From contig JBBTXG010000005.1 of assembly GCA_038062375.1 (NCBI GenBank), positions 51,273 to 115,272 of the forward strand: a stretch of 64,000 nt of DNA, given 5' to 3'. The position numbers and the translations under genes are program-made. Shown here one piece after another: positions 10,534 through 42,859 of this stretch. The stretch is from Patescibacteria group bacterium (lineage in GTDB: Bacteria > Patescibacteriota > Minisyncoccia > Minisyncoccales > UBA10102). The notes under the pieces were generated by a model. That model was not told the DNA's origin, ran no database searches, and saw only the letters and a program-made list of their open reading frames with translations. Numbering within the stretch: the first letter of the stretch is position 1; each line of letters begins with the position of its first letter.

Positions 10534-12969
10534 CTATTGCCCTAAGAAGTAGTCGTAGTTCGTGGGATAGCCATGGATGGCAGGATCTGGCTTGTAGAAT
10601 GTTTTAATTCTTCCATCTGCTGCTTTTATTCCGAAGTGTTCCGTTACGGTGTCAAACCGAATGATATCTCCATTGGCACGCGTTTTGGTCAGAAGCGTAC
10701 CACCAGCAGAACGGTTCATGAACATCTTTCCAAGCCATTCATATTCAACCTCGCTTTGAACTCCCAACCTTGCTCCATGGTCTTTGAAATGCTGACTCAA
10801 CCGTATAGGATCAAAGCCCTTGTGGTGTATGTACTGTAACACCTCCTCGCCATGTTTGTCTACTATTGTGAGTATCTTCGTGCCGTACTTGGCAATGTAT
10901 CCAACGAGTCTGACTGCCCCGCCCTCGGTCTTCATGATCTGGAGAGCACCTGCCGCGGCCTTGATGACCCGAGGCGCACTCTTGAGGGTTCGGATCGAGA
11001 TTCCACCTATGCCGCCAGTGCAACTGGTTTCCAAGCAGCCCCAGATTGCTTCAAGGAATTCCTGTCTGAAGCGCTCTTCCTCGGTAAGACACTCATTCGG
11101 GCCGCAGGGTCGTATCTCTCCTCCTGCGAAGCGTGGCTGGAGAGCTCGGGCAAGGCGGATGTTGGCTGTGAGTGAGTTGAGCTTGGTTCTGGTGCTTGAG
11201 CCCACAAAGCCAGTTCCTTGGGTGAGACCAAGAGGAGTCAGGATTTCCATGGTATACTTCTCTTGGAATCGGATAACGGCATTTTCGGTCAAGGGGCCAA
11301 AGTAGTCGGTCTCCTGTCCTGGAGAGCCTGGTCCTTCGATTGCTACTGCGGTATCCAAGTAGGTATTGAGAACGATCTGGAGGCACCGCACATCCTCTCC
11401 GCCCATTTCTCGCTTGAGATCAGTGTGGAATACGCAGTCTTCCGCAAGTGCGTAGTTGGACCATTGCGTCTTTGCGACAAGAGCTTGTTGATCTATTGGC
11501 TTGGGAGAACGGATAGGGTTGAGCCCCAGCGCTTTTGCTTCTTCTTGGCTAAGGTTTGTTTCTCTGCCTGCTGGTCCGAGTTCCGGATGAGAACTTAAGC
11601 CTCCTTTGTGCAGAGCTTCTTGAATGGCAATGAGAGTTCCGTCTCGAAGGGGAGATTGTGCAGAACCAAGATCTGCGATGTTGAATCTTGCTATACTTTC
11701 TTCCGAAACTCCAAAGATCTTTGCCAGCTCTGATCGGTAAACGGCAAACCCGCTTTTGTTGAGCAGCCAGTTCGTGTAGCTTGAAATGGATTGATTGTTG
11801 ATTTGGCCTGTCCCATCGGTGTGTCCGAGAAATACCGTACCTCCTGGATTGACTTCTACTCCACCTCCGATGATGCCAAAGCTCCTGGCGAGACTCGAGG
11901 TTTCCGCCCGTGCGTCGGAAAAGGCGATACCTTCATTGAATTTCTTGTGTACCACTCCGTTCACGAAGATTTCGCTTCCAGCTCCGCCGCTCGCATACTC
12001 ATAGCGGAGAATCACCACGTGGGTTGCTTTGCGGACAATGTAGTCGAACTGCCTTCCGAGACGGATAAACGTTTTTGCATTGGGTCCGCTATCAGATTCC
12101 GAGAATATCGCGCAATCCGCAGGAATGTCAAACTCGAACTTCTTGGCTGGAATACCGCCGTACGCTGGATTGTAATGAACGATGCGCTCGGGCTTCCCAG
12201 GCCTACATCCCTGTTTTGCAGCTTCGAGAGCCTGCTGTTCCTCTATTGCTTTCTGGATTTCTTCAACCAGTACCCAGATTTCGTTGATCTGCCGTTGAAT
12301 CTCTTGCTCAACAGGTATGGGCGTAGCAGTTGGTGTCGGAGCAGGCGTAGGAGTAGGAGTCAGAGGCACTGGTGTTGAGGTTGGAGTCTGTTGGTCTGCT
12401 GCTCCATACACCATAACCTCTACCCATGGGTTTCCTGGTTCGTCTATCCCAGCATCAGAGTTGCCATTGCTCCATACTCTGATATATCGATGGGATTGGC
12501 TAGGAGAGAGGATGATCTCCTTTCCTTCCAAGAAAGACTCAAGTTCGAGAGCTTGAACTATGGATGTCCAGGTCACGTTGTCTGAAGAACCCTCTACCTG
12601 TACTTGATGTAAGATCCTTTTCTTCCCTTGTTGGTACAAAGGATAGAGAACTATCTTGCAAGCAAGGTATGCCTTTCCTAGATCAATGGTAAATGATTGT
12701 TTGCCTGTTCCTACAAGGGTGTACTCTCCGGAGTCTTTGGGGATGAGTCCATTGGTGAGAATGGAGATCTCATTCGCTTCAATCTTTGCCTGTGTGGAGA
12801 CTGGTGCGTCTTTTGCGATGTTGGGTGTGGCTCCATCTCCGCATTGTTCTCCCTGCGCTGTTCCTTGAGAGAGCACAAGGGAAATGGCAAGGAGGCTCGC
12901 AAGGATGAGTATGCTTCCCAAGAGGATACAAGGTTTGCCTGCTTGAATGATCCTGCTGATCAAATACAT
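10534..12969 (-). CDS. Sec-exported multidomain polymorphic-toxin-like protein (discoidin-like + PT linker + PG_binding_1-like + variable C-terminal module)
   Basis: ATG at 12969 preceded by AAAGGAGtgcacaaa; the track ORF opens 9 nt upstream at a GTG. N-terminal hydrophobic signal or anchor. F5/8-type-C-like segment (SFTIDLGKAYL...VEGSSDNVTWTSIV...HRYIRVW...VEVMVYG). Linker TPTSTPVPLTPTPTPAPTPTATP. PG-binding-like GEDVRCLQIVLN...YFGPLTENAVIRFQEKY. Junction AAGALQIMKTEGGAVRLVGYI, then a ~110-aa tail. Confidence 0.75.
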   Translation of the reverse strand: MYLISRIIQAGKPCILLGSILILASLLAISLVLSQGTAQGEQCGDGATPNIAKDAPVSTQAKIEANEISILTNGLIPKDSGEYTLVGTGKQSFTIDLGKAYLACKIVLYPLYQQGKKRILHQVQVEGSSDNVTWTSIVQALELESFLEGKEIILSPSQSHRYIRVWSNGNSDAGIDEPGNPWVEVMVYGAADQQTPTSTPVPLTPTPTPAPTPTATPIPVEQEIQRQINEIWVLVEEIQKAIEEQQALEAAKQGCRPGKPERIVHYNPAYGGIPAKKFEFDIPADCAIFSESDSGPNAKTFIRLGRQFDYIVRKATHVVILRYEYASGGAGSEIFVNGVVHKKFNEGIAFSDARAETSSLARSFGIIGGGVEVNPGGTVFLGHTDGTGQINNQSISSYTNWLLNKSGFAVYRSELAKIFGVSEESIARFNIADLGSAQSPLRDGTLIAIQEALHKGGLSSHPELGPAGRETNLSQEEAKALGLNPIRSPKPIDQQALVAKTQWSNYALAEDCVFHTDLKREMGGEDVRCLQIVLNTYLDTAVAIEGPGSPGQETDYFGPLTENAVIRFQEKYTMEILTPLGLTQGTGFVGSSTRTKLNSLTANIRLARALQPRFAGGEIRPCGPNECLTEEERFRQEFLEAIWGCLETSCTGGIGGISIRTLKSAPRVIKAAAGALQIMKTEGGAVRLVGYIAKYGTKILTIVDKHGEEVLQYIHHKGFDPIRLSQHFKDHGARLGVQSEVEYEWLGKMFMNRSAGGTLLTKTRANGDIIRFDTVTEHFGIKAADGRIKTFYKPDPAIHGYPTNYDYFLGQ

Positions 12970-13267
12970 TTTGTGCACTCCTTTTTCTGGTTTTCTGTAT
13001 GTTGTCTTGCTTGTCTGTATATTCCTGTTTGCCTACTTCCCTCTTGATTCTCTATTCTCTATTCTTTTAATCCCTTCGCGCTTCTTTCCTCCTTATTCGA
13101 GATTCAATGAACTTTCCAATAAACCTTCCTTTGTCAGAGAGTTCTGAAATACTTGAGACTTCGATTCTCCATCAATCCTCCTTTCAACTCTGTCAGGTTT
13201 TACTGCCATTAATACTAACTTCACCCTAGAATAGGGCAAGACTTTTATCAAGATACACCAACGCCAC

Positions 13268-20396: not shown

Positions 20397-22133
20397 TTAC
20401 CACGCAGTAACTTTTATGAGATCAACATTCGCATCTTCTTCAGCTCCAGACATTTTCCCACGGAATCGAAGCCGAAGGTTTGGTATGCTGTTTAACTCAA
20501 TACTTTTATTGTGCCATTTATTTTCTTGGTCCACATTTCCGCGCAAACGTCCTTTTTCGTTCCAAGTCGCTCCTCCATTTGTTGAAACATCGAAGGCAAT
20601 ATACTCTCCTTTATCAAGACTGCTCTCAATATACCACGAAAAAGTGATCTTCGCATTTGTTTTTCCCTGCAAATCAATCGGAGAAGAGATGAGTGCGGCA
20701 TTTGAGGCATATCCATCGACTTGCGCAGAATAGATTCCATCTACTGCCCGCTGCGTTGATTGAAACCAATCATTCTGTGCATCTTGGGTCCAATTCCCTA
20801 AACCGCCTTCAAAACTATCCATCCATACAACAGTTTCAGGCGGCGGGGGCGGACCAGGAGTCCACGCCAAAGCAGCTTGTGCATTCACGAGACCGTATCC
20901 ATAGATATCATCCCTGCCAGAAGCTCCCAGGTCTTCTGCGCTTTGTTCAAGAGCTTGACGGACTTGAGTTGGAGTTGTGGCATTGCCTTTGGAAATCACC
21001 ATTGCTGCCACTCCTGCCACATGAGGAGTTGCCATAGATGTTCCTTGGAAGAACCAATATCCAAGATCTGCTCTGTTTTTGGTATTGGGATTAAAAGTAT
21101 TCTGCAAAACTCCATCTGCGTATCCATCGCCATTCTGGTCAACATTGAGATCTCCTCCAGGGCCCATGATATCAAGATTTGTCCCGTAGTTTGAATAGAA
21201 AGCGCGCGTCTCGTCATAGCGAGTTGCTCCTACTGCAACTGCGTAGCTATCGTATGCCGCGGGATAAGAAATAGTATTTGTTCCATCATTTCCCGCCGCG
21301 GCGACAATGGTAACTCCTTTGCCATAGGCATACGCCAAAGCCTCCTCTAAATAGCTCGCAGGAGAAGGGCCACCAAGAGAAAGGTTTATAACCTTCGCTC
21401 CATTATCGGCAGCAAATCTGATTCCGTCTGCGACATTGGCGTATGTGCCGCTCCCATTTTTATCAAGTACTTTCACGGGCATAATGCAAGAACTAAATGC
21501 AACCCCTGCGACGCCTTTCCCATTATTTGTGCTTTGAGCAACAGTGCCTGCAACATGGGTTCCATGGGAGTTATCATCGTTCGCATGTGTATCATTTTCT
21601 ACAAAGTCATATCCTCCCACAAAACACGTATTTGCCAAATCCGGAGCCAAGTAATACTTTTGCAATCCATTTTGATAGTCTTCATAAGCCACACCCGTAT
21701 CAACAACCGCGACCACTACTCCTGTACCGCTCGATACATCCCACGCGGGCTCGGTATGAATGCCTCCATATACTCCATTGGAAAAATGCCATTGAAGACT
21801 ATAGTACGTATCATCTGGCACCAAGGAGGCTTTCGCAATATAATTCGGTTCCGCATATTCCACATCCGGACGGCTTCGATATTGCAAAAGTGTTGCTTGC
21901 ACATCTTGGAATCGGGGAATGCTCACTTTTTGAAACCAATTTTCTCCTTTGAACTTTACAATCATTTCGCCTTGCACATATCCATTTCCTCCATGAGTAC
22001 CATATCCATCGAGAAATTGATTTGCTTCATGTACTTCTCCCAATCCAAAAGCAGATCCAACCCCACTCGAAAACAGAAGACCAACACTCAAGATTACAAT
22101 ACGCAACATAGAGAATATACTATTTCTTCTCAT
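20397..22133 (-). CDS. secreted subtilisin-like (S8) serine protease with a C-terminal beta-sandwich-like domain
   Basis: Signal peptide. Catalytic D (VVDTGV), H (HGTHVAGT) and S (GTSMATPHVAG). PGPPPPP linker, then a ~150-aa extra domain. Confidence 0.9.
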   Translation of the reverse strand: MRRNSIFSMLRIVILSVGLLFSSGVGSAFGLGEVHEANQFLDGYGTHGGNGYVQGEMIVKFKGENWFQKVSIPRFQDVQATLLQYRSRPDVEYAEPNYIAKASLVPDDTYYSLQWHFSNGVYGGIHTEPAWDVSSGTGVVVAVVDTGVAYEDYQNGLQKYYLAPDLANTCFVGGYDFVENDTHANDDNSHGTHVAGTVAQSTNNGKGVAGVAFSSCIMPVKVLDKNGSGTYANVADGIRFAADNGAKVINLSLGGPSPASYLEEALAYAYGKGVTIVAAAGNDGTNTISYPAAYDSYAVAVGATRYDETRAFYSNYGTNLDIMGPGGDLNVDQNGDGYADGVLQNTFNPNTKNRADLGYWFFQGTSMATPHVAGVAAMVISKGNATTPTQVRQALEQSAEDLGASGRDDIYGYGLVNAQAALAWTPGPPPPPETVVWMDSFEGGLGNWTQDAQNDWFQSTQRAVDGIYSAQVDGYASNAALISSPIDLQGKTNAKITFSWYIESSLDKGEYIAFDVSTNGGATWNEKGRLRGNVDQENKWHNKSIELNSIPNLRLRFRGKMSGAEEDANVDLIKVTAW

Positions 22134-22231
22134 ACTTTTTTATGATATTACTTATATCCTTATCCTAGACTACCAAACACCAGCAGAGGAAGTCAAGAGG
22201 CAGAGCCGTAACTGCTCCATGGGGTTATCTG

Positions 22232-22365
22232 CTCGGAATATAATCTGAAGGACTACCCGCAGCGAATTTGCATGGTTCCCGAGGACTGTCGAGGGAAAAT
22301 TCGCGAGGAACTAAGCTTGCGCCTCGCTGGAGGCGCAGAGCGCGTCCTTCAGATTATATTCCGAG
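22232..22365. repeat. 134-nt element closed by a perfect 22-bp inverted repeat (candidate structured RNA or MITE-like element)
   Basis: CTCGGAATATAATCTGAAGGAC at 22232..22253 has its exact reverse complement at 22344..22365. The interior forms two further hairpins (CGAATTT/AAATTCG and GCGCCTC/GAGGCGC). Confidence 0.55.
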
Positions 22366-22381
22366 AGCAATTACTCGTAAA

Positions 22382-24799
22382 CTATCCTTCCTCGTTTTTT
22401 TCTTCCTTTTGCTGTGGTCTTACCACATTAATGCCGCTCGAAGCGATGTTTGATTCTACTTCGTACCCTCCATTCCATGTCCCTCCCATTCCCTTCACCT
22501 GTGCTCTGTTGATGTAGATGCCGGCCTTGGCATCTTTGCTGAACACCGTTGTATATTCTACGATAATTTCTTCGTGGGGAAAAATTTGGTCAAGCTCCCA
22601 TTTCTTTTGGTGCACCACTTCTCCTTTCTCGTTTTCTAAAGCATCGCTAAGTACGGCGTGATAAGCCGGCCAGTCGCTCTCGTTCATGATAACCACCCTA
22701 TAGTCAACAGTGCCTCCGGGAGGAATAAGGTGATAAGAAGTACGACTCTTTACAATGTGCAAATCAGGCTTTGGAGTAAAAGGACGAAACACACAGTCGA
22801 CACATGCGGAGCGCGACTCGAGATTCGAGGGAGGTAGAGGAGGCATTTCTCGAAAAACTGCAAAGCTTACGGTTTCAAAATTATCTTCGTTATTCTCATC
22901 GGTTTCAAAACTCTCCACAGCCACCTTGCTTGTAACTTGAGTAGAGCCATAGGGAATATCCTGATTCACGTTTGCTGCGAAAGAAATTTCTTTTGACCCT
23001 CCTGCCAGAATAGTTCCAAGATCCCAAGATATTTCATCTCCCTGAACGCTTGCCCCATCTTCTATTGAAGCTAAGGTGAGATAACTGTTCTCAAATGTAC
23101 CTTTGAGATTCACCTTCGTTGCATCAGCGTCTCCATTGTTGACTACCGTAAGATGATACATAACTTTCTCCCCAGGTCCGATGGGATCTCGAGGAACTTC
23201 AACGCGTTCTCCAACCCAAAGATCAGGCCTTCCAAAAGCAACATTCCCCTTCCAATCTCCGAGAATATTGATAAGAGCAAGTATCCAGTTCCTGCCGATC
23301 ACATTGGTGTTCACCACATTCACAAGATTTGCAACCGCATATGCATTTCCAGTTTCAATGATTCCTTCCCCATCGTTTTCAATCTTATTTTTTCCAGTGA
23401 GCGCAAATACCTGTATGTTATTCTTGAGGGAAGCATCATTCGCGTTTTCGATATTTCTCTCAAAACCTGACTGCGACTGGTCAACACACATTTGTTTTTG
23501 GAGATCAAGAGACGGATCGCTATAAAGGATGAGGCCATCTGAAGTTTCTTGCCACACAATGCCAGGGGGCAGACTAAACATATTTCCGGCCCAATCGCCT
23601 GCGATTCGAAAAAGAGCAAAAAAGGAGCTTCCGCCGAAAAGATTGGTATTTACCTGATTTACTGTATTCGCTGCGGCAAACGAGGAACCGGTGCGCACCG
23701 CACTTGTTCCTTGGGCGCTCAATGCTTCGTTGGCTCCAGTCTGTGCACGGACCTCTATGGTGTTTTCTACCTGGGCTTGGTTGTGGTTCTCAATTATGGT
23801 TTGCGAGGAATTATCTGTCGTCTGGCAAGCCTCGGGCAACCCTTCTTGCGTTCCATTTCGATCTCCGGGCGAAGAAAAGAATTGAGAGAAAAATGACGCC
23901 GCAGGGAACACCATATCACCTTGCAACGAACCAAAATTATTTGCAACAAAGAAGAGATAGTTGGAATCGACAATATTGGTATTTACGATATTTACCATAT
24001 TCGCAGCTCCATATGCTGCGCCCGTCTGGATAGAACCGCCTCCGTTGCTATTGGAAACTGCGTTCATTCCTGTAATGGATCGCACGATCATGGTGTTTGT
24101 GACGGCAGCGCTGCTTTGAGATTGCGCATCAAGATCAATCGTATCGCACCCTGCCAAAGGACACTTGGCTCCCTCCAGCCAATTCCCTTGGCTAAAAAGA
24201 TCAAGATTCCTCAAATCAATATCTCCGAGCAATCCTCGAAAATTGGAAAACAACAAAAACAATCCATTGGAATCGAGTATATTGGCATTGACCACATTCA
24301 CGACCGTAGCACTTGCTTGTGCTTGACCCGATTGAATTGCTGCATCTTCCCCATCTTCCGTAACCGTGTTTCCACCGGTTTGAGATTCTACTTCGGTCGT
24401 ATTGACTACCTTCGCCTCATTTTCCCCTTCAAGCTGAACTTCAGAATGCTCATTCGCTTCTGCTTGAGCATCACTCGTATCTCCACTCACTTGTTCTTGA
24501 ATGGCAGGGTCAGGAGAACGAGAACTGCCATCTTCTTGATCTTGAGGCTGTTCCGTAGAAATTTCCTGTTGTGAATCTTCTGTCGGTGAAGATGGAGTAG
24601 ATACTTGCTCTTGCTCTGAAGATTCCTCTGTGCTTTCTTGCGCGGTCTCTGTTTCTTGCGCGCTTGAAAAATTCAGTTCAAAAACAGAAACGGCTCCATA
24701 GAAAAAAAAGATCAATCCAAATCCAATCCCAAACAGAATTTTGGAGAATTTTGCCGGAAGATAATTGAAGAAAAATATGTTAAAAAATGGTGAGCCCAT
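22382..24799 (-). CDS. large membrane-anchored surface protein: acidic linker + 4 novel repeats + 2 DUF11-like domains
   Basis: Start taken at MGSPFFNIFFF... (an ATG at 24886 is also possible). There are four copies of V..[TQ]TG.N...(I/V).TG.A.A.AN.VN.VNTN. The C-terminal region has DUF11-like segments (GEKVMYHLTVVNNGDADATKVNL; GGTVDYRVVIMNESDWPA). Confidence 0.8.
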   Translation of the reverse strand: MGSPFFNIFFFNYLPAKFSKILFGIGFGLIFFFYGAVSVFELNFSSAQETETAQESTEESSEQEQVSTPSSPTEDSQQEISTEQPQDQEDGSSRSPDPAIQEQVSGDTSDAQAEANEHSEVQLEGENEAKVVNTTEVESQTGGNTVTEDGEDAAIQSGQAQASATVVNVVNANILDSNGLFLLFSNFRGLLGDIDLRNLDLFSQGNWLEGAKCPLAGCDTIDLDAQSQSSAAVTNTMIVRSITGMNAVSNSNGGGSIQTGAAYGAANMVNIVNTNIVDSNYLFFVANNFGSLQGDMVFPAASFFSQFFSSPGDRNGTQEGLPEACQTTDNSSQTIIENHNQAQVENTIEVRAQTGANEALSAQGTSAVRTGSSFAAANTVNQVNTNLFGGSSFFALFRIAGDWAGNMFSLPPGIVWQETSDGLILYSDPSLDLQKQMCVDQSQSGFERNIENANDASLKNNIQVFALTGKNKIENDGEGIIETGNAYAVANLVNVVNTNVIGRNWILALINILGDWKGNVAFGRPDLWVGERVEVPRDPIGPGEKVMYHLTVVNNGDADATKVNLKGTFENSYLTLASIEDGASVQGDEISWDLGTILAGGSKEISFAANVNQDIPYGSTQVTSKVAVESFETDENNEDNFETVSFAVFREMPPLPPSNLESRSACVDCVFRPFTPKPDLHIVKSRTSYHLIPPGGTVDYRVVIMNESDWPAYHAVLSDALENEKGEVVHQKKWELDQIFPHEEIIVEYTTVFSKDAKAGIYINRAQVKGMGGTWNGGYEVESNIASSGINVVRPQQKEEKNEEG

Positions 24800-25262
24800 G
24801 GAAAGGTTTCCTGAAAAGAGAAGAAAGAAAAAAGAACACTCTTTGCCGCCATGACCGATTCTCGCCTTTCTCGATGTTTGGAACATTCTCGGCTTGTAAA
24901 GCAGATGCTTTACTTCCTCTTGGTGGATCGGCTTTGAGATACGCTTTCGTCTGCACTTTTATCTTTTTTTCCTTATCCTCATAGAAAGACTCTTTCTTTA
25001 ATTCTGCTGGTTTCTTTTCTTGAGAAACAACTCTTTCATCAATTTGTTCAACAATCCTTCCCTCAACTTTCGTCTCAACGCGAATATGTCCTGAAGAATC
25101 GTGTGTGCGCACCTCTTCTCTTTTTGCCACATTCCCACCGCTCAAAGCAGAAACTGAAACGTCATTCGTTATCGAAACTGATTTTGCGGCCACAGCGAGC
25201 GGACTCCAATATCCAACTCCCACTCCAAGAGATATGAGGACTATGTAAAATTCTTTGTTCAT
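24780..25262 (-). CDS. secreted hypothetical protein carrying a partial copy of the cluster repeat
   Basis: ATG MNKEFYIVLISLGVGVGYWSPLAVAA signal peptide. SITNDVSVSALSGGNVAK resembles the first half of the repeat unit. The 3' end overlaps the next gene by 20 nt. Confidence 0.55.
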   Translation of the reverse strand: MNKEFYIVLISLGVGVGYWSPLAVAAKSVSITNDVSVSALSGGNVAKREEVRTHDSSGHIRVETKVEGRIVEQIDERVVSQEKKPAELKKESFYEDKEKKIKVQTKAYLKADPPRGSKASALQAENVPNIEKGENRSWRQRVFFFLSSLFRKPFHGLTIF

Positions 25263-25369
25263 TGGTTCTCCCTCGGGCAAGAGTTTGACCTCTGCTCTGT
25301 ACGAACAATCAAACTCTCGCTCGAAGGAGAAAGCAGTTTCTTTACTACTGCTTTCGCCCTTCGCTCCGA

Positions 25370-26020
25370 TTAGTGCAAAATACGAGTAATGTTGGTATTC
25401 ACCACATTCGTTATGCTTGCACCAGCTAACGCATTGCCCGTATGGACTACACCGCCAATGCTTCCATTCCCGCCAGAGCCGCCATTTCCGCTGTGATTTT
25501 CATCTCCAGACGCGATCACGTCACCAGCATCGCCGCCAGATCCGCCTGATCCGCCAGAAGAGCTGTTACCGCTACTTAATGCGGCAACACCCACTCCATT
25601 ACCTACCAAAGCGCCATTTCCATTCGCAACCAAAATGAAATCTTCATCATCGTCATCATCATCACACGCACAATCATCAACAAGGGTATCATTCGTATTC
25701 ACCAGATTCGTGACGCTTGCGACAGCAGTTGCGTTGCCCGTGTGGACGAGACCGCCCATGCCGCCATCTCCACCAGAACCGCCGTTTCCGCCTACGTTCT
25801 CGTCGTCGGAAAACAATATAGTTCCGCCTTCACCTCCAGAACCGCCCTCTCCGCCGTCTGCGCTGTTGAGGCCGGTATCTGCAACCACTACAACCTCGTT
25901 GAGAACATACGCACTATTGCTGTTGCTGACGACCACTGTATCAGCCAACGCAGGCATCGCATACAGGCCTAACGATAATGCGGGCAGCATACTTATCGTG
26001 AGAGAAATTTTCGATATCAT
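25370..26020 (-). CDS. secreted Gly/Asp-rich two-module repeat protein (twin A)
   Basis: 216 aa. Signal peptide ...AMPALA/D. Two modules end in HTGNA.A.AS.TN.VNTN, joined by DDCACDDDDDDED. C-terminus NTNITRILH. Confidence 0.8.
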   Translation of the reverse strand: MISKISLTISMLPALSLGLYAMPALADTVVVSNSNSAYVLNEVVVVADTGLNSADGGEGGSGGEGGTILFSDDENVGGNGGSGGDGGMGGLVHTGNATAVASVTNLVNTNDTLVDDCACDDDDDDEDFILVANGNGALVGNGVGVAALSSGNSSSGGSGGSGGDAGDVIASGDENHSGNGGSGGNGSIGGVVHTGNALAGASITNVVNTNITRILH

Positions 26021-26084
26021 GTTTTTTGTTTGAGAACTGTCAATTTTTTTATTCGACCTTTCTCCATGAAATACACTAAGTTGT

Positions 26085-26744
26085 TTAGTGCAAAATGCGT
26101 GTAACGTTTGTGTTCACCACGTTTGCAATGCTTGCGCCAGCAGTGGCATAACCAGTTGTTACTCCTCCACCCCAACCACCATTTCCGCCAGTCGATCCTC
26201 CATTTCCGCCCGTGTTGTCATCGTCAGAATCCACCACACTTCCGCCATCTCCGCCAGAACCGCCTGAACCGCCACCCGATCCATTCGCTCCCGTGTCGCC
26301 AGCCACAAGTACTCCATTACCTACGGATCCGCTGTTGCCATTCAGAACAAGAATCTCATCCCAAGCATCGTGGTGATGATTGTCATCGCAAGCGCAGTCG
26401 TCAATCTCGGTTTCATTGGTATTTACAACGTTCAGAACCCCTGCTCCTGCCGAGGCATTACCCGTAAGAATGTGGCCACCAAGTCCTCCATTCCCGCCAG
26501 AACCTCCATTTCCGCCCGTGTTGTCATCGTCAGAATCCACCACACTTCCGCCACTTCCTCCAGAGCCACCTGACCCCCCGTCTGCGCTATTGCCACCCGT
26601 GGACGCAACCACAAAAACACCGTTTCCTACCTCTGCCCAGTTCTCATTTATTACCGTAATATCATCTGCCAAAACGGGAAGGGCGTATGTTCCTGTCGCA
26701 ATCGCTGGCAACAAAGATGCGCTCAATAAAATCTTCTTGATCAT
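26085..26744 (-). CDS. secreted Gly/Asp-rich two-module repeat protein (twin B)
   Basis: 219 aa. Same architecture as twin A, with linker DDCACDDNHHHD and C-terminus NTNVTRILH. Confidence 0.8.
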   Translation of the reverse strand: MIKKILLSASLLPAIATGTYALPVLADDITVINENWAEVGNGVFVVASTGGNSADGGSGGSGGSGGSVVDSDDDNTGGNGGSGGNGGLGGHILTGNASAGAGVLNVVNTNETEIDDCACDDNHHHDAWDEILVLNGNSGSVGNGVLVAGDTGANGSGGGSGGSGGDGGSVVDSDDDNTGGNGGSTGGNGGWGGGVTTGYATAGASIANVVNTNVTRILH

Positions 26745-26849
26745 AGGAATTTTATTCTTCTGTGCTTATAAACCCCATAAGGGGTAACGACCTTTTGCTG
26801 CCTGAACTTTTCTTTGGTTTTTCTGGAACTTTTGCTTCAGAAAAAACCA

Positions 26850-26900
26850 ATAAAAAATCCAAGCAAAAAACTACTTTACCCGTAATTTTTTGCTTGGATT
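26850..26900 (-). terminator. strong intrinsic terminator-like hairpin in the leader of the Gly-rich genes
   Basis: Perfect 15-bp stem AATCCAAGCAAAAAA/TTTTTTGCTTGGATT (26856..26870 and 26886..26900), followed on the minus strand by a U-run. Confidence 0.6.
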
Positions 26901-26920
26901 CCAAATGAATAAAACCTTAC

Positions 26921-26953
26921 AACAAAAAAGGTAACGTCCATTGCACATTACCT
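26921..26953 (-). terminator. terminator-like hairpin in the same leader
   Basis: Minus strand AGGUAAU-gugcaauggac-GUUACCU followed by UUUUUUGUUG. Confidence 0.45.
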
Positions 26954-27010
26954 CTTCTATGTTTTCCCCGACTAGAGAGATTTGAGCTAAAAAAATAAAA
27001 AGATTATGAT

Positions 27011-27038
27011 ATTGTAACAAGACGAACAAGCGTGTCAA
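27011..27038 (-). promoter_or_regulatory. near-consensus sigma70 promoter facing the Gly-rich gene pair
   Basis: Minus strand TTGACA-16 nt-TACAAT, about 260 nt upstream of the 26744 start codon. Confidence 0.55.
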
Positions 27039-27077
27039 GAAACAAGTTTATCCACAGAGGGCATGAGCAAACAAAAA

Positions 27078-27148
27078 GTCCGCATATGGGCGCTGAATCA
27101 GGGAAAACGGCCCTTTGCAGGGCATGATCCAGCGCCCGTTATACGGAC
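27078..27148. other. long imperfect hairpin flanked by A/T runs (bidirectional terminator-like or structured RNA)
   Basis: GTCCGCATATGGGCGCTG...CAGCGCCCGTTATACGGAC with an inner GCCCT-ttgc-AGGGC hairpin. A T-run follows on both strands. Confidence 0.4.
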
Positions 27149-27179
27149 TTTTATCAAACATATATGTCCTATCATGGTG

Positions 27180-27208
27180 ATAAAAACTTGTCCATAGGGT
27201 AGGACAAG
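27180..27208 (-). terminator. intrinsic terminator downstream of the SH3-domain gene
   Basis: Minus strand CTTGTCC-taccctat-GGACAAG followed by TTTTTAT. Confidence 0.55.
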
Positions 27209-27304
27209 TCAAACAAAAAACATGGCGCTTTCACCTGCGCAATGTTTAGGAGCAATTTTTATAAGACGAGATTATCGGATTCTTGAAGATTCTGCTGTAT
27301 ACGA

Positions 27305-27326
27305 TTGAGGCTTAGCCTCGCACAAC
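27305..27326. repeat. palindromic terminator-like repeat, copy 2 (left arm shortened)
   Basis: TTGAGGCTTAGCCTCGCACAAC, abutting the stop codon at 27328. Confidence 0.5.
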
Positions 27327-27327
27327 C

Positions 27328-27789
27328 TTACATACCTCGGAAAAGATCTTTGCTTCGATCAATCTTTTGGACGTATTGACCAAAAACCCATCCCTGTTTT
27401 CCATCGGGGAAAAGAATATGAAACCAGCCATCTTTCTCCTCGGTATATTCATATACCTCTCCAGGACGCACTCGGTCAATGCGCGCGCTGGTGAGTGAGG
27501 GCGCTTCCCTCACGTTCAAATAGCCCACGGACGTATCAAGAATTTGCAATTTCACGGCTGGAGATATCTCCTTTGGAGATTCACGAGATGAATTCGGCTG
27601 TGCAGAAATCAGTTCTTCTGACGCTTGATAGGTTGGTTGATTCTCAACCACCGTCGTATCCTTCATGGAAAGTAGTACAAAAATACCCGTCCCGATGAAA
27701 ACAAGGACAAACAAAAAAATCAGCATATTTTTTTGTTTGCCAGACTGCATTCCTTTTTGATATAGTGAGGCTATCGTTTGCTCTTCCAT
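27328..27789 (-). CDS. membrane-anchored bacterial SH3-domain protein
   Basis: 153 aa. TM helix, then YLNVREAPSLTSARIDRVRPGEVYEYTEEKDGWFHILFPDGKQGWVFGQYV. Confidence 0.75.
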   Translation of the reverse strand: MEEQTIASLYQKGMQSGKQKNMLIFLFVLVFIGTGIFVLLSMKDTTVVENQPTYQASEELISAQPNSSRESPKEISPAVKLQILDTSVGYLNVREAPSLTSARIDRVRPGEVYEYTEEKDGWFHILFPDGKQGWVFGQYVQKIDRSKDLFRGM

Positions 27790-41248: not shown

Positions 41249-42859
41249 ATGGAACTCTCACCAAAAGTTCACACATTAATCAAGGAATATCAATTGTGGG
41301 AAAAGGAGAAAATGCATGAAAGAGACGAGGGAAACGCAATCTCGGTGGATGAGGTTGCAGCCACCGTCGCGTCGTTTTATGAAAAGATTCGAGGCATTGT
41401 GGATTGGCGCGAAGAACACCTCCTGCGCAAAACCGCCATTGAGCGAATTCTGAAGCGCCGAATTATCACAAACAAACGCAGTGAAGAATTCGCGGAGGGT
41501 TTTCTCCAAGAATTAGTGCGAGGAGGTCATTTTCCAAACAACAGTCTCCCTCTCAAAAAAATAGATGAGATTCAACGAATCGTTGAGAAATACGTATTTA
41601 TCAGCGAACACGGCCGTTCTACGCAATCAGTCTCTCTCGGAAAAATCGAAGACTGGCTCTGGTCAATTGCAACGTGTGAGATCGAAGAAGCGCTCTCGCT
41701 TCCTCGAAGAGAAAAAGCTCTCATTGAATTTATGTATGAAGAGCTTCAAACCCGTATTCAGATAGAGGACAAAAAGGGGCCTCGTGGGGTGCCGATTTCC
41801 AATGACGAGCGATCTCTTCAGGTCTATATTGCCGTCCAGAGAACACTCTTCAAACTAGATAGCGCTACTATTACCTATCACATCATCGAGAAATTCTATG
41901 CCGATTGGTCAAACCCATCGCAAGAAACTCTCTTGAACGTTTCTCAAGACCTCGCACGCCTCTATGAAAAGATTCGATATGCGCTTTCCCATCCGTATGC
42001 GGAAAAATTTTACCAGGTAGCGGAAAAATACGACACCCCCTATCTCATCTTGGGAGATATCATCGCAGAGAATCCCGAAACATTTTTGCAATTAACCGAT
42101 AACTTCTCTGAATTTGAAGAAACAATAAAAAGTATCTACGAGCAAAGACTTTTAAGACTCAAGGGAAGGATTCGAAGAGCTGCATTCTATAGCACCCTCT
42201 CTGTATTCCTCACCAAGATCTTACTTGCATTGTCCATTGAAATCCCGGTAGATCAATATCTCGCACACGGCTTGAATTACACTGCTCTCGGGACCAGCGT
42301 AGCGATTCCACCTCTCCTCATGCTCTTTCTTGTGATAAGCGTACAAACCTCGTCTCAACAGAATGTCAATCGAGTAGTCACCGAAGTAATACGACTAACC
42401 TTTCTAACCCAAGAACAGAAGGAACCATACAAAATTCGTGCTCTTGGAAAACCAAGAAGTTCTTCTGTGATGGCAATCGTATATGGAATGTACTTTTCGA
42501 GTTTCCTCCTCACATTCGGCGGAATTGCCTTCATCCTCTACAGCCTCGAATTCAGCACGCTCTCTATCCTTATCCTTGTCACATTCCTCTCGCTTGTATC
42601 ATTTGCAGGCACCAGAATACGCAAACGAGCGCGCGAACTCATGATGGAGGTGGAAAAAGAAGGGCTATTCTTTGGAATCTTTGATTTTTTTGCGCTCCCC
42701 ATGATCCAATTCGGAAAATGGCTTTCCAATCAACTCGTGAGGTACAACCTTATCGTGCTGCTCCTCAATTTTCTTATTGAAATCCCGCTCCAAGTGTTTG
42801 TGGAATTCCTCGAGCAATGGAGAATGTTTCTGAAAGAGAAGAAGGAAGAAATACATTAA
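41249..42859 (+). CDS. hypothetical integral membrane protein
   Basis: 536 aa. Soluble N-terminal ~300 aa followed by several TM helices. No family recognised. Confidence 0.6.
   Translation: MELSPKVHTLIKEYQLWEKEKMHERDEGNAISVDEVAATVASFYEKIRGIVDWREEHLLRKTAIERILKRRIITNKRSEEFAEGFLQELVRGGHFPNNSLPLKKIDEIQRIVEKYVFISEHGRSTQSVSLGKIEDWLWSIATCEIEEALSLPRREKALIEFMYEELQTRIQIEDKKGPRGVPISNDERSLQVYIAVQRTLFKLDSATITYHIIEKFYADWSNPSQETLLNVSQDLARLYEKIRYALSHPYAEKFYQVAEKYDTPYLILGDIIAENPETFLQLTDNFSEFEETIKSIYEQRLLRLKGRIRRAAFYSTLSVFLTKILLALSIEIPVDQYLAHGLNYTALGTSVAIPPLLMLFLVISVQTSSQQNVNRVVTEVIRLTFLTQEQKEPYKIRALGKPRSSSVMAIVYGMYFSSFLLTFGGIAFILYSLEFSTLSILILVTFLSLVSFAGTRIRKRARELMMEVEKEGLFFGIFDFFALPMIQFGKWLSNQLVRYNLIVLLLNFLIEIPLQVFVEFLEQWRMFLKEKKEEIH

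Follow-up and report, generated by a model that had tools for sequence, protein, structure and literature searches.

A Patescibacteria gene cassette for three types of secreted proteins sharing one undescribed repeat module, with a possible role in a cell-surface structure

The stretch of DNA analyzed here (64,000 nucleotides, hereafter "the window") belongs to contig JBBTXG010000005.1 of a Patescibacteria group bacterium from Hainich groundwater well H51 (0.1-um filter fraction) and contains five co-directional open reading frames (ORFs) on the minus strand at positions 20397-26744. A first reading of the DNA made without database searches (the "sequence-only reading") had described five adjacent minus-strand genes, each with a signal peptide or an N-terminal anchor. 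All five are present at these coordinates, and the five translations each appear to begin with a hydrophobic N-terminus. From 5' to 3' on the minus strand, the genes encode two small twin proteins (219 and 216 amino acids, aa), a 160-aa mid protein, an 805-aa big protein, and an S8 subtilase. The small, mid, and big proteins are three secreted protein types built from one repeat module and encoded in a fixed order, with immunoglobulin (Ig)-type stalk domains and an isopeptide triad in the big protein. The features of the cluster are listed below with the evidence for each, including hidden Markov model (HMM) matches and the confidence score of the structural model (pLDDT).

26085..26744 (-): small secreted two-unit protein A, 219 aa (translation, HMM)
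26400-26669 (-): unit 1 of protein A (HMM E 1.4e-18)
26088-26369 (-): unit 2 of protein A (HMM E 2e-15)
25370..26020 (-): small secreted two-unit protein B, 216 aa, paralogue of A (64% identity)
25676-25945 (-): unit 1 of protein B (HMM E 4.6e-18)
25373-25651 (-): unit 2 of protein B (HMM E 1.1e-16)
24780..25262 (-): mid protein, 160 aa (mid-family HMM, hhalign)
25059-25193 (-): diverged unit of the mid protein (hhalign probability 96.4%)
24783-24854 (-): conserved hydrophobic or amphipathic C-terminal tail of the mid protein, ...VFFFLSSLFRKPFHGLTIF
22382..24799 (-): big protein, 805 aa, starting at Met30 of an 834-aa ORF
24686-24754 (-): predicted N-terminal hydrophobic helix of the big protein (AlphaFold helix at residues 16-38)
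24455-24685 (-): acidic Glu/Gln/Ser-rich spacer of ~75 residues, predicted disordered (pLDDT < 50 at residues 37-89)
24266-24454, 23957-24148, 23630-23815, and 23285-23473 (-): units U1, U2, U3, and U4 of the big protein (HMM E ~1e-23 each)
22865-23194 (-): CLIPPER/DUF11 domain 1 of the big protein (Pfam)
22487-22771 (-): CLIPPER-like domain 2 of the big protein (Lys684/Asp719/Asn764)
20397..22133 (-): secreted S8 subtilase, 578 aa (Pfam Peptidase_S8)

An alignment of eight clear copies places the core of the module at ~55-63 aa, or ~90 residues with a Gly-rich insert, so the length of ~35 residues initially proposed was too short. The core consensus is I.V.N.N.A.V.N.V.V.A.TG.N.A ... G.I.TG.A.A.A.V.N.VNTN, and in the twins an insert of ~30 aa rich in GGX triplets splits the core between its two halves. 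The HMM built from these eight copies was scanned against all six-frame ORFs of the window. It recovered four units and no more in the big protein (independent E 1e-23 to 1e-24) and a pair in each twin (E 1e-15 to 1e-18). These are the numbers counted by the sequence-only reading, and there was no match beyond these three proteins. The 160-aa mid protein, for which a partial copy had been suggested, went undetected by the unit HMM, but the mid family aligned to the unit profile (hhalign probability 96.4%, E 1.3e-9, 45 columns), and with an HMM of 37 mid proteins encoded in other loci, the 160-aa protein itself reached 82 bits (E 2.3e-27). The mid protein therefore has one diverged unit, recognizable by profile-profile comparison.

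The big protein was modelled by AlphaFold2 from an alignment of 41 sequences (mean pLDDT 81.4; > 85-90 over most of the repeat region). Each modelled unit consists of a 17-20-residue strand, a turn at TG.N, and a return strand broken at the second TG (pLDDT > 90), and its later part consists of the NTN turn and a further 9-residue strand (NY.L...N.FG). In the big protein, each unit is followed by this further strand and a loop (NY.L...N.FG...G.W.GN..FGRPDLW); the small proteins lack the extra covering strand. Co-variation was assessed by mean-field direct-coupling analysis of 944 non-identical units from all fetched proteins, and 10 of the 28 strongest couplings fell on the antidiagonal i+j = 68-71 (7% expected), which is the signature of an antiparallel hairpin pairing profile positions 12-27 with 39-57. 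The AlphaFold model and the co-variation thus agree independently and indicate that the unit is a long antiparallel beta-hairpin. Modelled strands of this length do not fit a short-strand beta-solenoid, a fold that the sequence-only reading had raised as a question. Along the strands, the conserved positions (Asn, Ala, Val, Thr, and Gly) alternate, and such alternation of small residues and Asn may be what closely packed sheets require.

Searches of Pfam-A, NCBIfam, and PHROGs with the five window proteins and their homologues gave no match on the repeat region, as all family-library matches fell in the C-terminal Ig part of the big protein or in the protease. Sequence searches of the PDB with three profiles (unit, big protein, and twin) returned nothing meaningful, and the designed armadillo proteins that appeared amongst the results matched only a low-complexity linker. 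Foldseek searches with the whole big-protein model against the PDB and BFVD yielded only Ig-domain matches, and those with the twin model (pLDDT 57.7) yielded only non-significant matches. A word-index search with the unit alignment gave no matches, the units being too short for the E-value scale of that search. Literature on surface layers in the Candidate Phyla Radiation (CPR), on TIGR01451 in CPR, and on the Hainich metaproteomes contained nothing naming this module family. The suspicion that the repeat belonged to no described family was borne out by the empty Pfam, NCBIfam, PHROGs, and PDB sequence searches.

An exhaustive hmmsearch with an 89-sequence unit profile against 1.84 billion cluster representatives (50% identity clusters) recovered 3,579 clusters at E <= 1e-3 and 882 at E <= 1e-30; the best 150 of the 3,579 are mostly proteins of 800-1,100 aa with five units. 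The named matches are 'hypothetical' or 'DUF11' proteins of Parcubacteria, Patescibacteria, or Microgenomates, and every named homologue comes from the Patescibacteria (e.g., Sungbacteria, Vogelbacteria, Daviesbacteria, Minisyncoccia, and Parcubacteria). When one genome for each of 185,579 GTDB species was scanned with a strict 52-column motif of the last unit (..FGRPDLW), the motif was found in at least 174 species, and all 80 loci listed are from metagenome-assembled genomes (MAGs) of Patescibacteria, in keeping with the assignment of the organism to this group. The module is without described relatives, lineage-specific, and unannotated until now. The Gly-rich composition of the twins and the armadillo artefacts mentioned above could suggest that the shared module is merely a low-complexity bias toward Gly, Asn, and Ala; yet the unit profile, which leaves out the Gly inserts, reaches E 1e-15 to 1e-24 per copy, the 3,579 clusters were recovered with 4-6 ordered copies each, and the co-variation within the unit is position-specific. 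A compositional origin can therefore be rejected with near certainty.

The ORFs called in 85 distinct related loci were scored with the profiles. In virtually every locus with enough upstream DNA, the big gene is immediately preceded, on its own strand, by one or more small repeat-bearing genes, and a simple screen found a mid protein (120-250 aa) between them in 54 of the 85. The resulting cassette has the order small (two units), mid (one unit and a hydrophobic C-terminal tail), and big (four or five units and two CLIPPER/DUF11 Ig domains). We propose to define the cassette by the unit profile in these three protein types, in that order and on one strand, and the window carries all three in this arrangement. 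Co-conservation of the cluster thus extends to the three repeat-bearing gene types, whose order and strand are kept in essentially all 85 loci, and not to the S8 protease, which adjoins 10 of the 85. In the window, the last 20 nt of the mid gene are shared with the start of the big gene, and the two genes overlap in most loci (gaps of -6 to -130 nt), which suggests translational coupling. All-against-all clustering of the neighboring ORFs found only S8 and CAP/SCP families recurring besides the three core types.

These conservation data bear on whether the proteins act together at all. The big protein could be a self-sufficient fibrillar adhesin, and the small and mid proteins could be paralogues that act as binders in soluble form or at the wall, their clustering reflecting only duplication and co-regulation without a joint structure. 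Tandem duplication and domain shuffling also yield a shared module, and the size (179-535 aa) and number (one to three genes) of the small proteins vary widely, and the inserts at the hairpin tips are also variable, a property expected of loops that bind ligands. However, the fixed small-mid-big order across very divergent lineages and the overlap of the mid and big genes are hard to explain without a joint function, and the mid protein has no obvious binding domain beyond its one unit and the conserved hydrophobic tail. We consider independently acting binders rather unlikely.

Protein A has a putative Sec-type signal peptide ending in ...PVLA and a conserved C-terminus (VNTNVTRILH). The two units of each twin are joined by a Cys-x-Cys linker (DDCACDD at 26369-26400 in protein A), and both the CxC and an ...NITRIRR end are conserved in an alignment of 32 small proteins. 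In the twin inserts, GGX triplets form two runs of four or five (GGSGGSGGSGG ... GGNGGSGGNGGLGG) that flank a conserved SDDDNT loop. Across the family, the hairpin tip is the hot spot for insertions, which are long and GGX-type in the small proteins, short in the mid proteins, and mostly missing in the big proteins. Up to three small genes occur in loci L039 and L050. The mid family is laid out as a signal peptide, the motifs V.N.VS.SA.TGGN and V.I.T.VNGE.V.D, a linker that is acidic or rich in Ser, and, at the extreme C-terminus, a conserved tail of hydrophobic or amphipathic character (..F..VFSIF..). In the mid protein of the window, the signal peptide, like that of protein A, was read from the sequence, and a Lys/Glu-rich linker follows the unit.

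The 805-aa call for the big gene is identical in public assemblies. PF01345 (DUF11) matches the big protein with 48.5 bits (cut-off 24.6) over two stretches, the best covering residues 565-674 of the 834-aa ORF, and TIGR01451 matches with 28.5 (cut-off 24), whereas DUF7507/CLIPPER_2 remains below its cut-off (E 0.001). The two DUF11-like domains noted in the sequence-only reading are thus supported by PF01345 and not by DUF7507/CLIPPER_2. The C-terminal region was modelled with a pLDDT of ~90, and Foldseek matched it to tandem Ig-like domains and a DUF11 protein (PDB E 3.8e-9, BFVD 6.5e-10), so that the C-terminus is predicted to form a CnaA-like Ig beta-sandwich. PF01345 has been renamed CLIPPER, a domain with a CnaA-like fold and an intramolecular Lys-Asn isopeptide bond that is typical of the stalks of fibrillar adhesins (Protein Sci 2025, PMC12617251). 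In domain 2, the triad Lys684 (PDLHIVK), Asp719 (LSDAL), and Asn764 (YINRAQV) was mapped by motif rather than by structural superposition, and its spacing of 35 and 80 residues is similar to the 33 and 91 seen in the crystallised CLIPPER domain. Domain 1 has Gly-Glu-Arg in place of the Lys. Amongst 236 distinct family sequences, 137 have both the Lys and the Asn, 80 have neither, and 19 have one alone (6 and 13), although these statistics are inflated by the relatedness of the sequences. This pattern would fit a real isopeptide bond in a subset of the family that includes the window protein.

The acidic Glu/Gln/Ser-rich stalk pointed out in the sequence-only reading is present and predicted to be disordered. 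Of 175 homologues that appear complete, about 80 terminate in a transmembrane helix followed by basic residues, whereas the window protein ends 16 residues past its last Ig domain without a hydrophobic segment. The only candidate anchor in the window protein is therefore the N-terminal hydrophobic helix with its acidic spacer. NCBIfam gives no sortase (LPXTG-type) signal on the big protein, and no LPXTG was found in the homologues with the transmembrane helix and basic tail, about half of the family. Many of these homologues (P0009, P0014, P0097, P0098, P0107, P0108, P0115, P0127, and others) have a (V/I)LG(A/E) motif 15-30 residues upstream of the helix, as in ..EILGAVSE....ILPYVLLFLLSS.W...K.RK., which may be a lineage-specific sorting signal and which the window protein lacks. 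Of the big proteins, 93 of 133 with four units and 79 of 133 with five units have a Cys pair (C-x0-4-C) just before the third-from-last unit; their Cys content is otherwise only 0.7%. The pair in the window is CPLAGC, upstream of U2, and such pairs may be a disulfide staple or a metal site.

The S8 protease lies 248 nt beyond the big gene, and the description of a subtilase with an extra C-terminal domain immediately downstream was correct. PF00082 covers the whole profile (1-288 of 288) with 197.6 bits (cut-off 21.8), and the translation contains the catalytic Asp (VVAVVDTG), His (HGTHVAG), and Ser (GTSMATPHVAG) motifs. The layout is a signal peptide, an N-terminal prodomain (Fervidolysin_NPro-like, 28.1 bits), a catalytic domain, a Pro-rich linker, and a C-terminal beta domain of ~140 aa that shows weak MAM-like similarity (E 0.009, below cut-off). 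A match to an LAETG motif is sub-threshold (E 0.081, 12.7 bits against a cut-off of 30). Assignment as a mycosin of a type VII secretion system (T7SS) was rejected because TIGR03921 scores 215.9 bits, less than its equivalog cut-off of 278.75. S8 adjoins the cassette in 10 of the 85 loci (~12%), always within 1.5 kb, and no orthologue occurs elsewhere in the 8-9-kb flanks of these loci. It is directly downstream in six loci, including the window, and upstream in four, in two of those on the opposite strand. The orthologues in the nine other S8-linked loci, which include Sungbacteria and MAGs labelled Ryan-, Kaiser-, and Zambryskibacteria, share the C-terminal domain. The protease is thus a recurrent accessory gene rather than a core component, and the proposed co-occurrence as a conserved member of the cluster was not upheld. 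No association was found between S8 adjacency and a missing C-terminal anchor (Fisher p 0.51).

A CAP/SCP (PF00188) protein is encoded in 11 loci, often directly downstream of the big gene (e.g., L003 10026-10967, L050 10471-11058, L058 10459-11196, L062 9799-10221, L068 10212-10709, and L078 8484-9023). As this is the position held by S8 in the window, it may be an alternative accessory gene. Patescibacteria of this lineage live as episymbionts or parasites, and with such a lifestyle, the long hairpins with their alternating residue pattern and the S8 or CAP/SCP proteins next to some cassettes could belong to a secreted antagonistic or host-attacking system, in which the hairpins would insert into or bind the host envelope and the subtilase would be a degradative partner. 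The conserved strand faces, however, are rich in Ala, Asn, and Val and not strongly hydrophobic, no toxin or pore-former family or fold was matched in Pfam, NCBIfam, or Foldseek, and the clustering of neighboring ORFs revealed no recurrent immunity-like gene. CLIPPER stalks and the membrane anchors in half of the family point instead to a cell-bound structure, and a host-attacking function appears very improbable.

The intergenic region upstream of the first twin gene (26745-27340, minus strand) is unusually long (~580 nt) and contains the following features.

27038 to 27011 (-): near-consensus promoter-like site TTGACA-16-TACAAT with TG (consensus scan)
within 26745..27038 (-): structured leader of ~260 nt upstream of the first twin gene (fold energy)

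The leader has a fold energy of -83.8 kcal/mol (z = -6.6 against shuffles) with several long hairpins, including a 20-bp stem followed by a T-run at 26901-26855, and matches no Rfam family at gathering score. Counterparts of the -35 box, the GGGGAAAAC box, and the stem base AAUCCAAGC...GCUUGGAUUUUUUAUUG lie at the equivalent position in locus L029 (labelled Wildermuthbacteria). These elements match only partially there and in none of the other loci, with an exact match of the stem in that one locus. The promoter-like site and the leader are thus putative parts of the cassette, and the leader could be a stabilising 5' untranslated region, an attenuator, or a small RNA.

Surface-layer (S-layer) genes typically have long, stable leaders, and a strong promoter-like site with a long, very stable 5' leader before the first twin gene could be expected of an S-layer-like lattice or sheath. 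In such a two-dimensional array on the cell surface, the abundant building blocks would be the small proteins, with attachment to the membrane supplied by the big and mid proteins. In favor of a lattice are the secretion, the beta-rich make-up, and the modularity of the proteins, as well as the duplication of the small gene (two copies here and up to three in L039 and L050). The cassette is also chromosomal and lies amongst housekeeping genes. On the other hand, the leader is conserved in only one other locus, Pfam and NCBIfam gave neither an SLH or other known wall-binding domain nor an S-layer family match, and the occurrence of the strict motif in at least 174 of 185,579 species points to some of the Patescibacteria and not to an envelope layer common to them all. 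Moreover, CLIPPER domains have been described in fibrillar-adhesin stalks and not in lattices (PMC12617251). We consider a lattice rather unlikely.

The cassette is flanked by genes for DinB, HU, CTP synthase, LepA, DNA polymerase III alpha, GyrB, and tRNA synthetases. Since these surrounding genes are housekeeping genes, the cassette is a trait of the chromosome core and not a mobile element. Directly upstream, the window encodes a 153-aa membrane-anchored protein (27328-27789, minus strand) with an SH3_3 domain (E 5e-14), a bacterial SH3 type often involved in cell-wall binding. At ~7 kb from the cassette, an 814-aa protein (10534-12978, minus strand) with F5/8 type C (discoidin) and PG_binding_1 domains is another likely surface or wall protein. 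A 536-aa ORF (41249-42859, plus strand) between the ThrRS gene and the next gene has no Pfam match at E <= 1e-4. In seven related loci (L010, L016, L020, L050, L062, L063, and L068), TasA/camelysin-like tandem paralogues lie a few kb from the cassette, for example at L062 10443-13867, with a SipW-type signal peptide (..GATGAFFSDTE.S..N.F.AG..DL). They would represent a second, different putative fibre system, and none was seen in the window.

Taken together, the observation made in the sequence-only reading is confirmed with corrections, and its interpretation is partly supported. We infer that the small, mid, and big proteins together form one cell-surface structure. The explanation that we favor, tentatively and with slightly less than even confidence, is that the cassette is specific to Patescibacteria and encodes a cell-surface structure of several components, most probably a fibre or a fibrillar adhesin, built from one hairpin module. 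A fibre or fibrillar adhesin is favored because CLIPPER domains are stalk domains, half of the family is membrane-anchored, and the arrangement resembles that of chaplins, curli, and pili. All three systems follow one logic, in which a large protein has more copies of a domain than the small secreted proteins that accompany it. The small proteins may be the "abundant-looking subunits" of the sequence-only reading, which had proposed a fibre, sheath, or adhesin assembly.

In such a fibre or fibrillar adhesin, the big protein of this genome would be held at the cell by its N-terminal hydrophobic helix, followed by the acidic spacer, whereas in about half of its relatives, it would be held by the C-terminal transmembrane helix. 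The four hairpin units could form a rigid beta-rich body. Translational coupling would synchronise production of the mid protein with that of the big protein, and the mid protein may dock via its single unit and hydrophobic C-terminal tail. The small proteins could then join this scaffold through pairing of the module, either sheet to sheet or edge to edge, as the lack of a covering strand may leave one face free for pairing. The GGX inserts at the hairpin tips would be displayed as an exposed, variable surface, and the S8 protease, where present, may trim or mature these proteins outside the cell.

Several known systems resemble the cassette in part. In the chaplins of Streptomyces, long members act as anchors and short members as subunits of a surface fibre layer, all sharing a small domain. 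Chaplins and the cassette proteins have in common that several secreted proteins share one small domain and that the larger ones carry more copies and an anchor, but the module described here has no Pfam match at E <= 1, is a polar Asn/Ala/Val hairpin of ~60 aa as opposed to a hydrophobic domain of ~40 aa, and is not accompanied by a sortase signal. In curli and Fap, imperfect repeats with a high content of Asn/Gln, Gly, and Ala are common to the major subunit and to the nucleator or anchor, and the Fap operon includes a protease gene, FapD. The 'x-G-x-N-x-A' turn motif bears a superficial likeness to the curlin repeat, and the unit and curlin profiles were compared directly. Homology to curli (S-x5-Q-x-G-x-G-N-x-A-x3-Q repeat) was rejected, with an hhalign probability of 0.3% and no Curlin_rpt match at E <= 1. 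A likeness to FapC was also rejected, as Foldseek gave E 0.045, a probability of 0.03, and a structural-alignment (TM) score of 0.09-0.11 from the twin model with pLDDT 57.7. The strands in our model are also predicted to be 17-20 residues long, unlike those of curli and Fap, and the clustering of neighboring ORFs revealed no outer-membrane secretion channel genes in the cassette. The GGX periodicity of the inserts in both twins recalls polyglycine-II proteins (2PNE, the snow flea antifreeze protein, and the gp38 tip of phage S16), although only composition and periodicity match, and Foldseek against 2PNE gave E 8.6 from a low-pLDDT model. A mycosin is the best NCBIfam match of the S8 protease, and as with T7SS mycosins and other S8 subtilases that process surface proteins, a secreted subtilase lies beside likely substrates; however, there are no T7SS genes nearby, and the C-terminal beta domain of S8 is kept in the cassette-linked orthologues. 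A parallel in domain content exists with the CLIPPER fibrillar adhesins (PMC12617251), which resemble the big protein as secreted, elongated surface proteins with CnaA-like Ig domains and the Lys/Asp/Asn triad, here in domain 2, and a terminal membrane anchor, here in half of the family. In contrast to these adhesins, the big protein has two Ig domains instead of a long tandem stalk, lacks the Lys in domain 1, consists for the most part of four or five copies of an undescribed hairpin module, and is always encoded with two further proteins of the same module.

A number of points weigh against the proposed fibre or fibrillar adhesin. The mutual binding or polymerisation of the proteins is hypothetical. 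The twin model is poor (pLDDT 57.7), which leaves the GGX periodicity as the only firm feature of the Gly-rich inserts, and whole-model Foldseek searches, with Ig-domain matches only, offered no precedent for the hairpin body. The N-terminal hydrophobic segment of the big protein could be an anchor or a cleaved signal peptide. The label "anchor protein" given in the sequence-only reading would fit the N-terminal hydrophobic helix, but this helix may be cleaved off, and the C-terminal transmembrane helix is absent here. The N-terminal spacer was not found to be longer where the C-terminal anchor is missing (p 0.87). S8 is absent from ~88% of loci, and the expression and proteome literature, including the Hainich metaproteomes, contained nothing naming this family.

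A more far-reaching and distinctly doubtful version of the fibre hypothesis is that the cassette encodes a hitherto unknown kind of self-assembling surface fibre restricted to Patescibacteria, in which the membrane-held four-unit protein would template a cross-beta-like stacking of the two-unit proteins via their long Asn/Ala-rich hairpins, in the manner of a functional amyloid, with polyglycine-II tips exposed for contact. Type IV pili aside, such a fibre would be the long-sought attachment or contact organelle of ultrasmall bacteria of the Paceibacteria type.

The Patescibacteria account for much of bacterial diversity and are a major part of groundwater communities, and to our knowledge, their surface molecules for host contact are essentially unknown apart from type IV pili. 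A widespread, lineage-restricted, and previously unannotated module is now defined, together with a conserved three-gene cassette with isopeptide-type stalk domains. The unit profile can annotate thousands of 'hypothetical proteins', and the compact set of proteins (160, ~217, and 805 aa) is suited to structural and proteome work. The cassette thereby supplies candidates for an envelope or attachment structure of the Patescibacteria.

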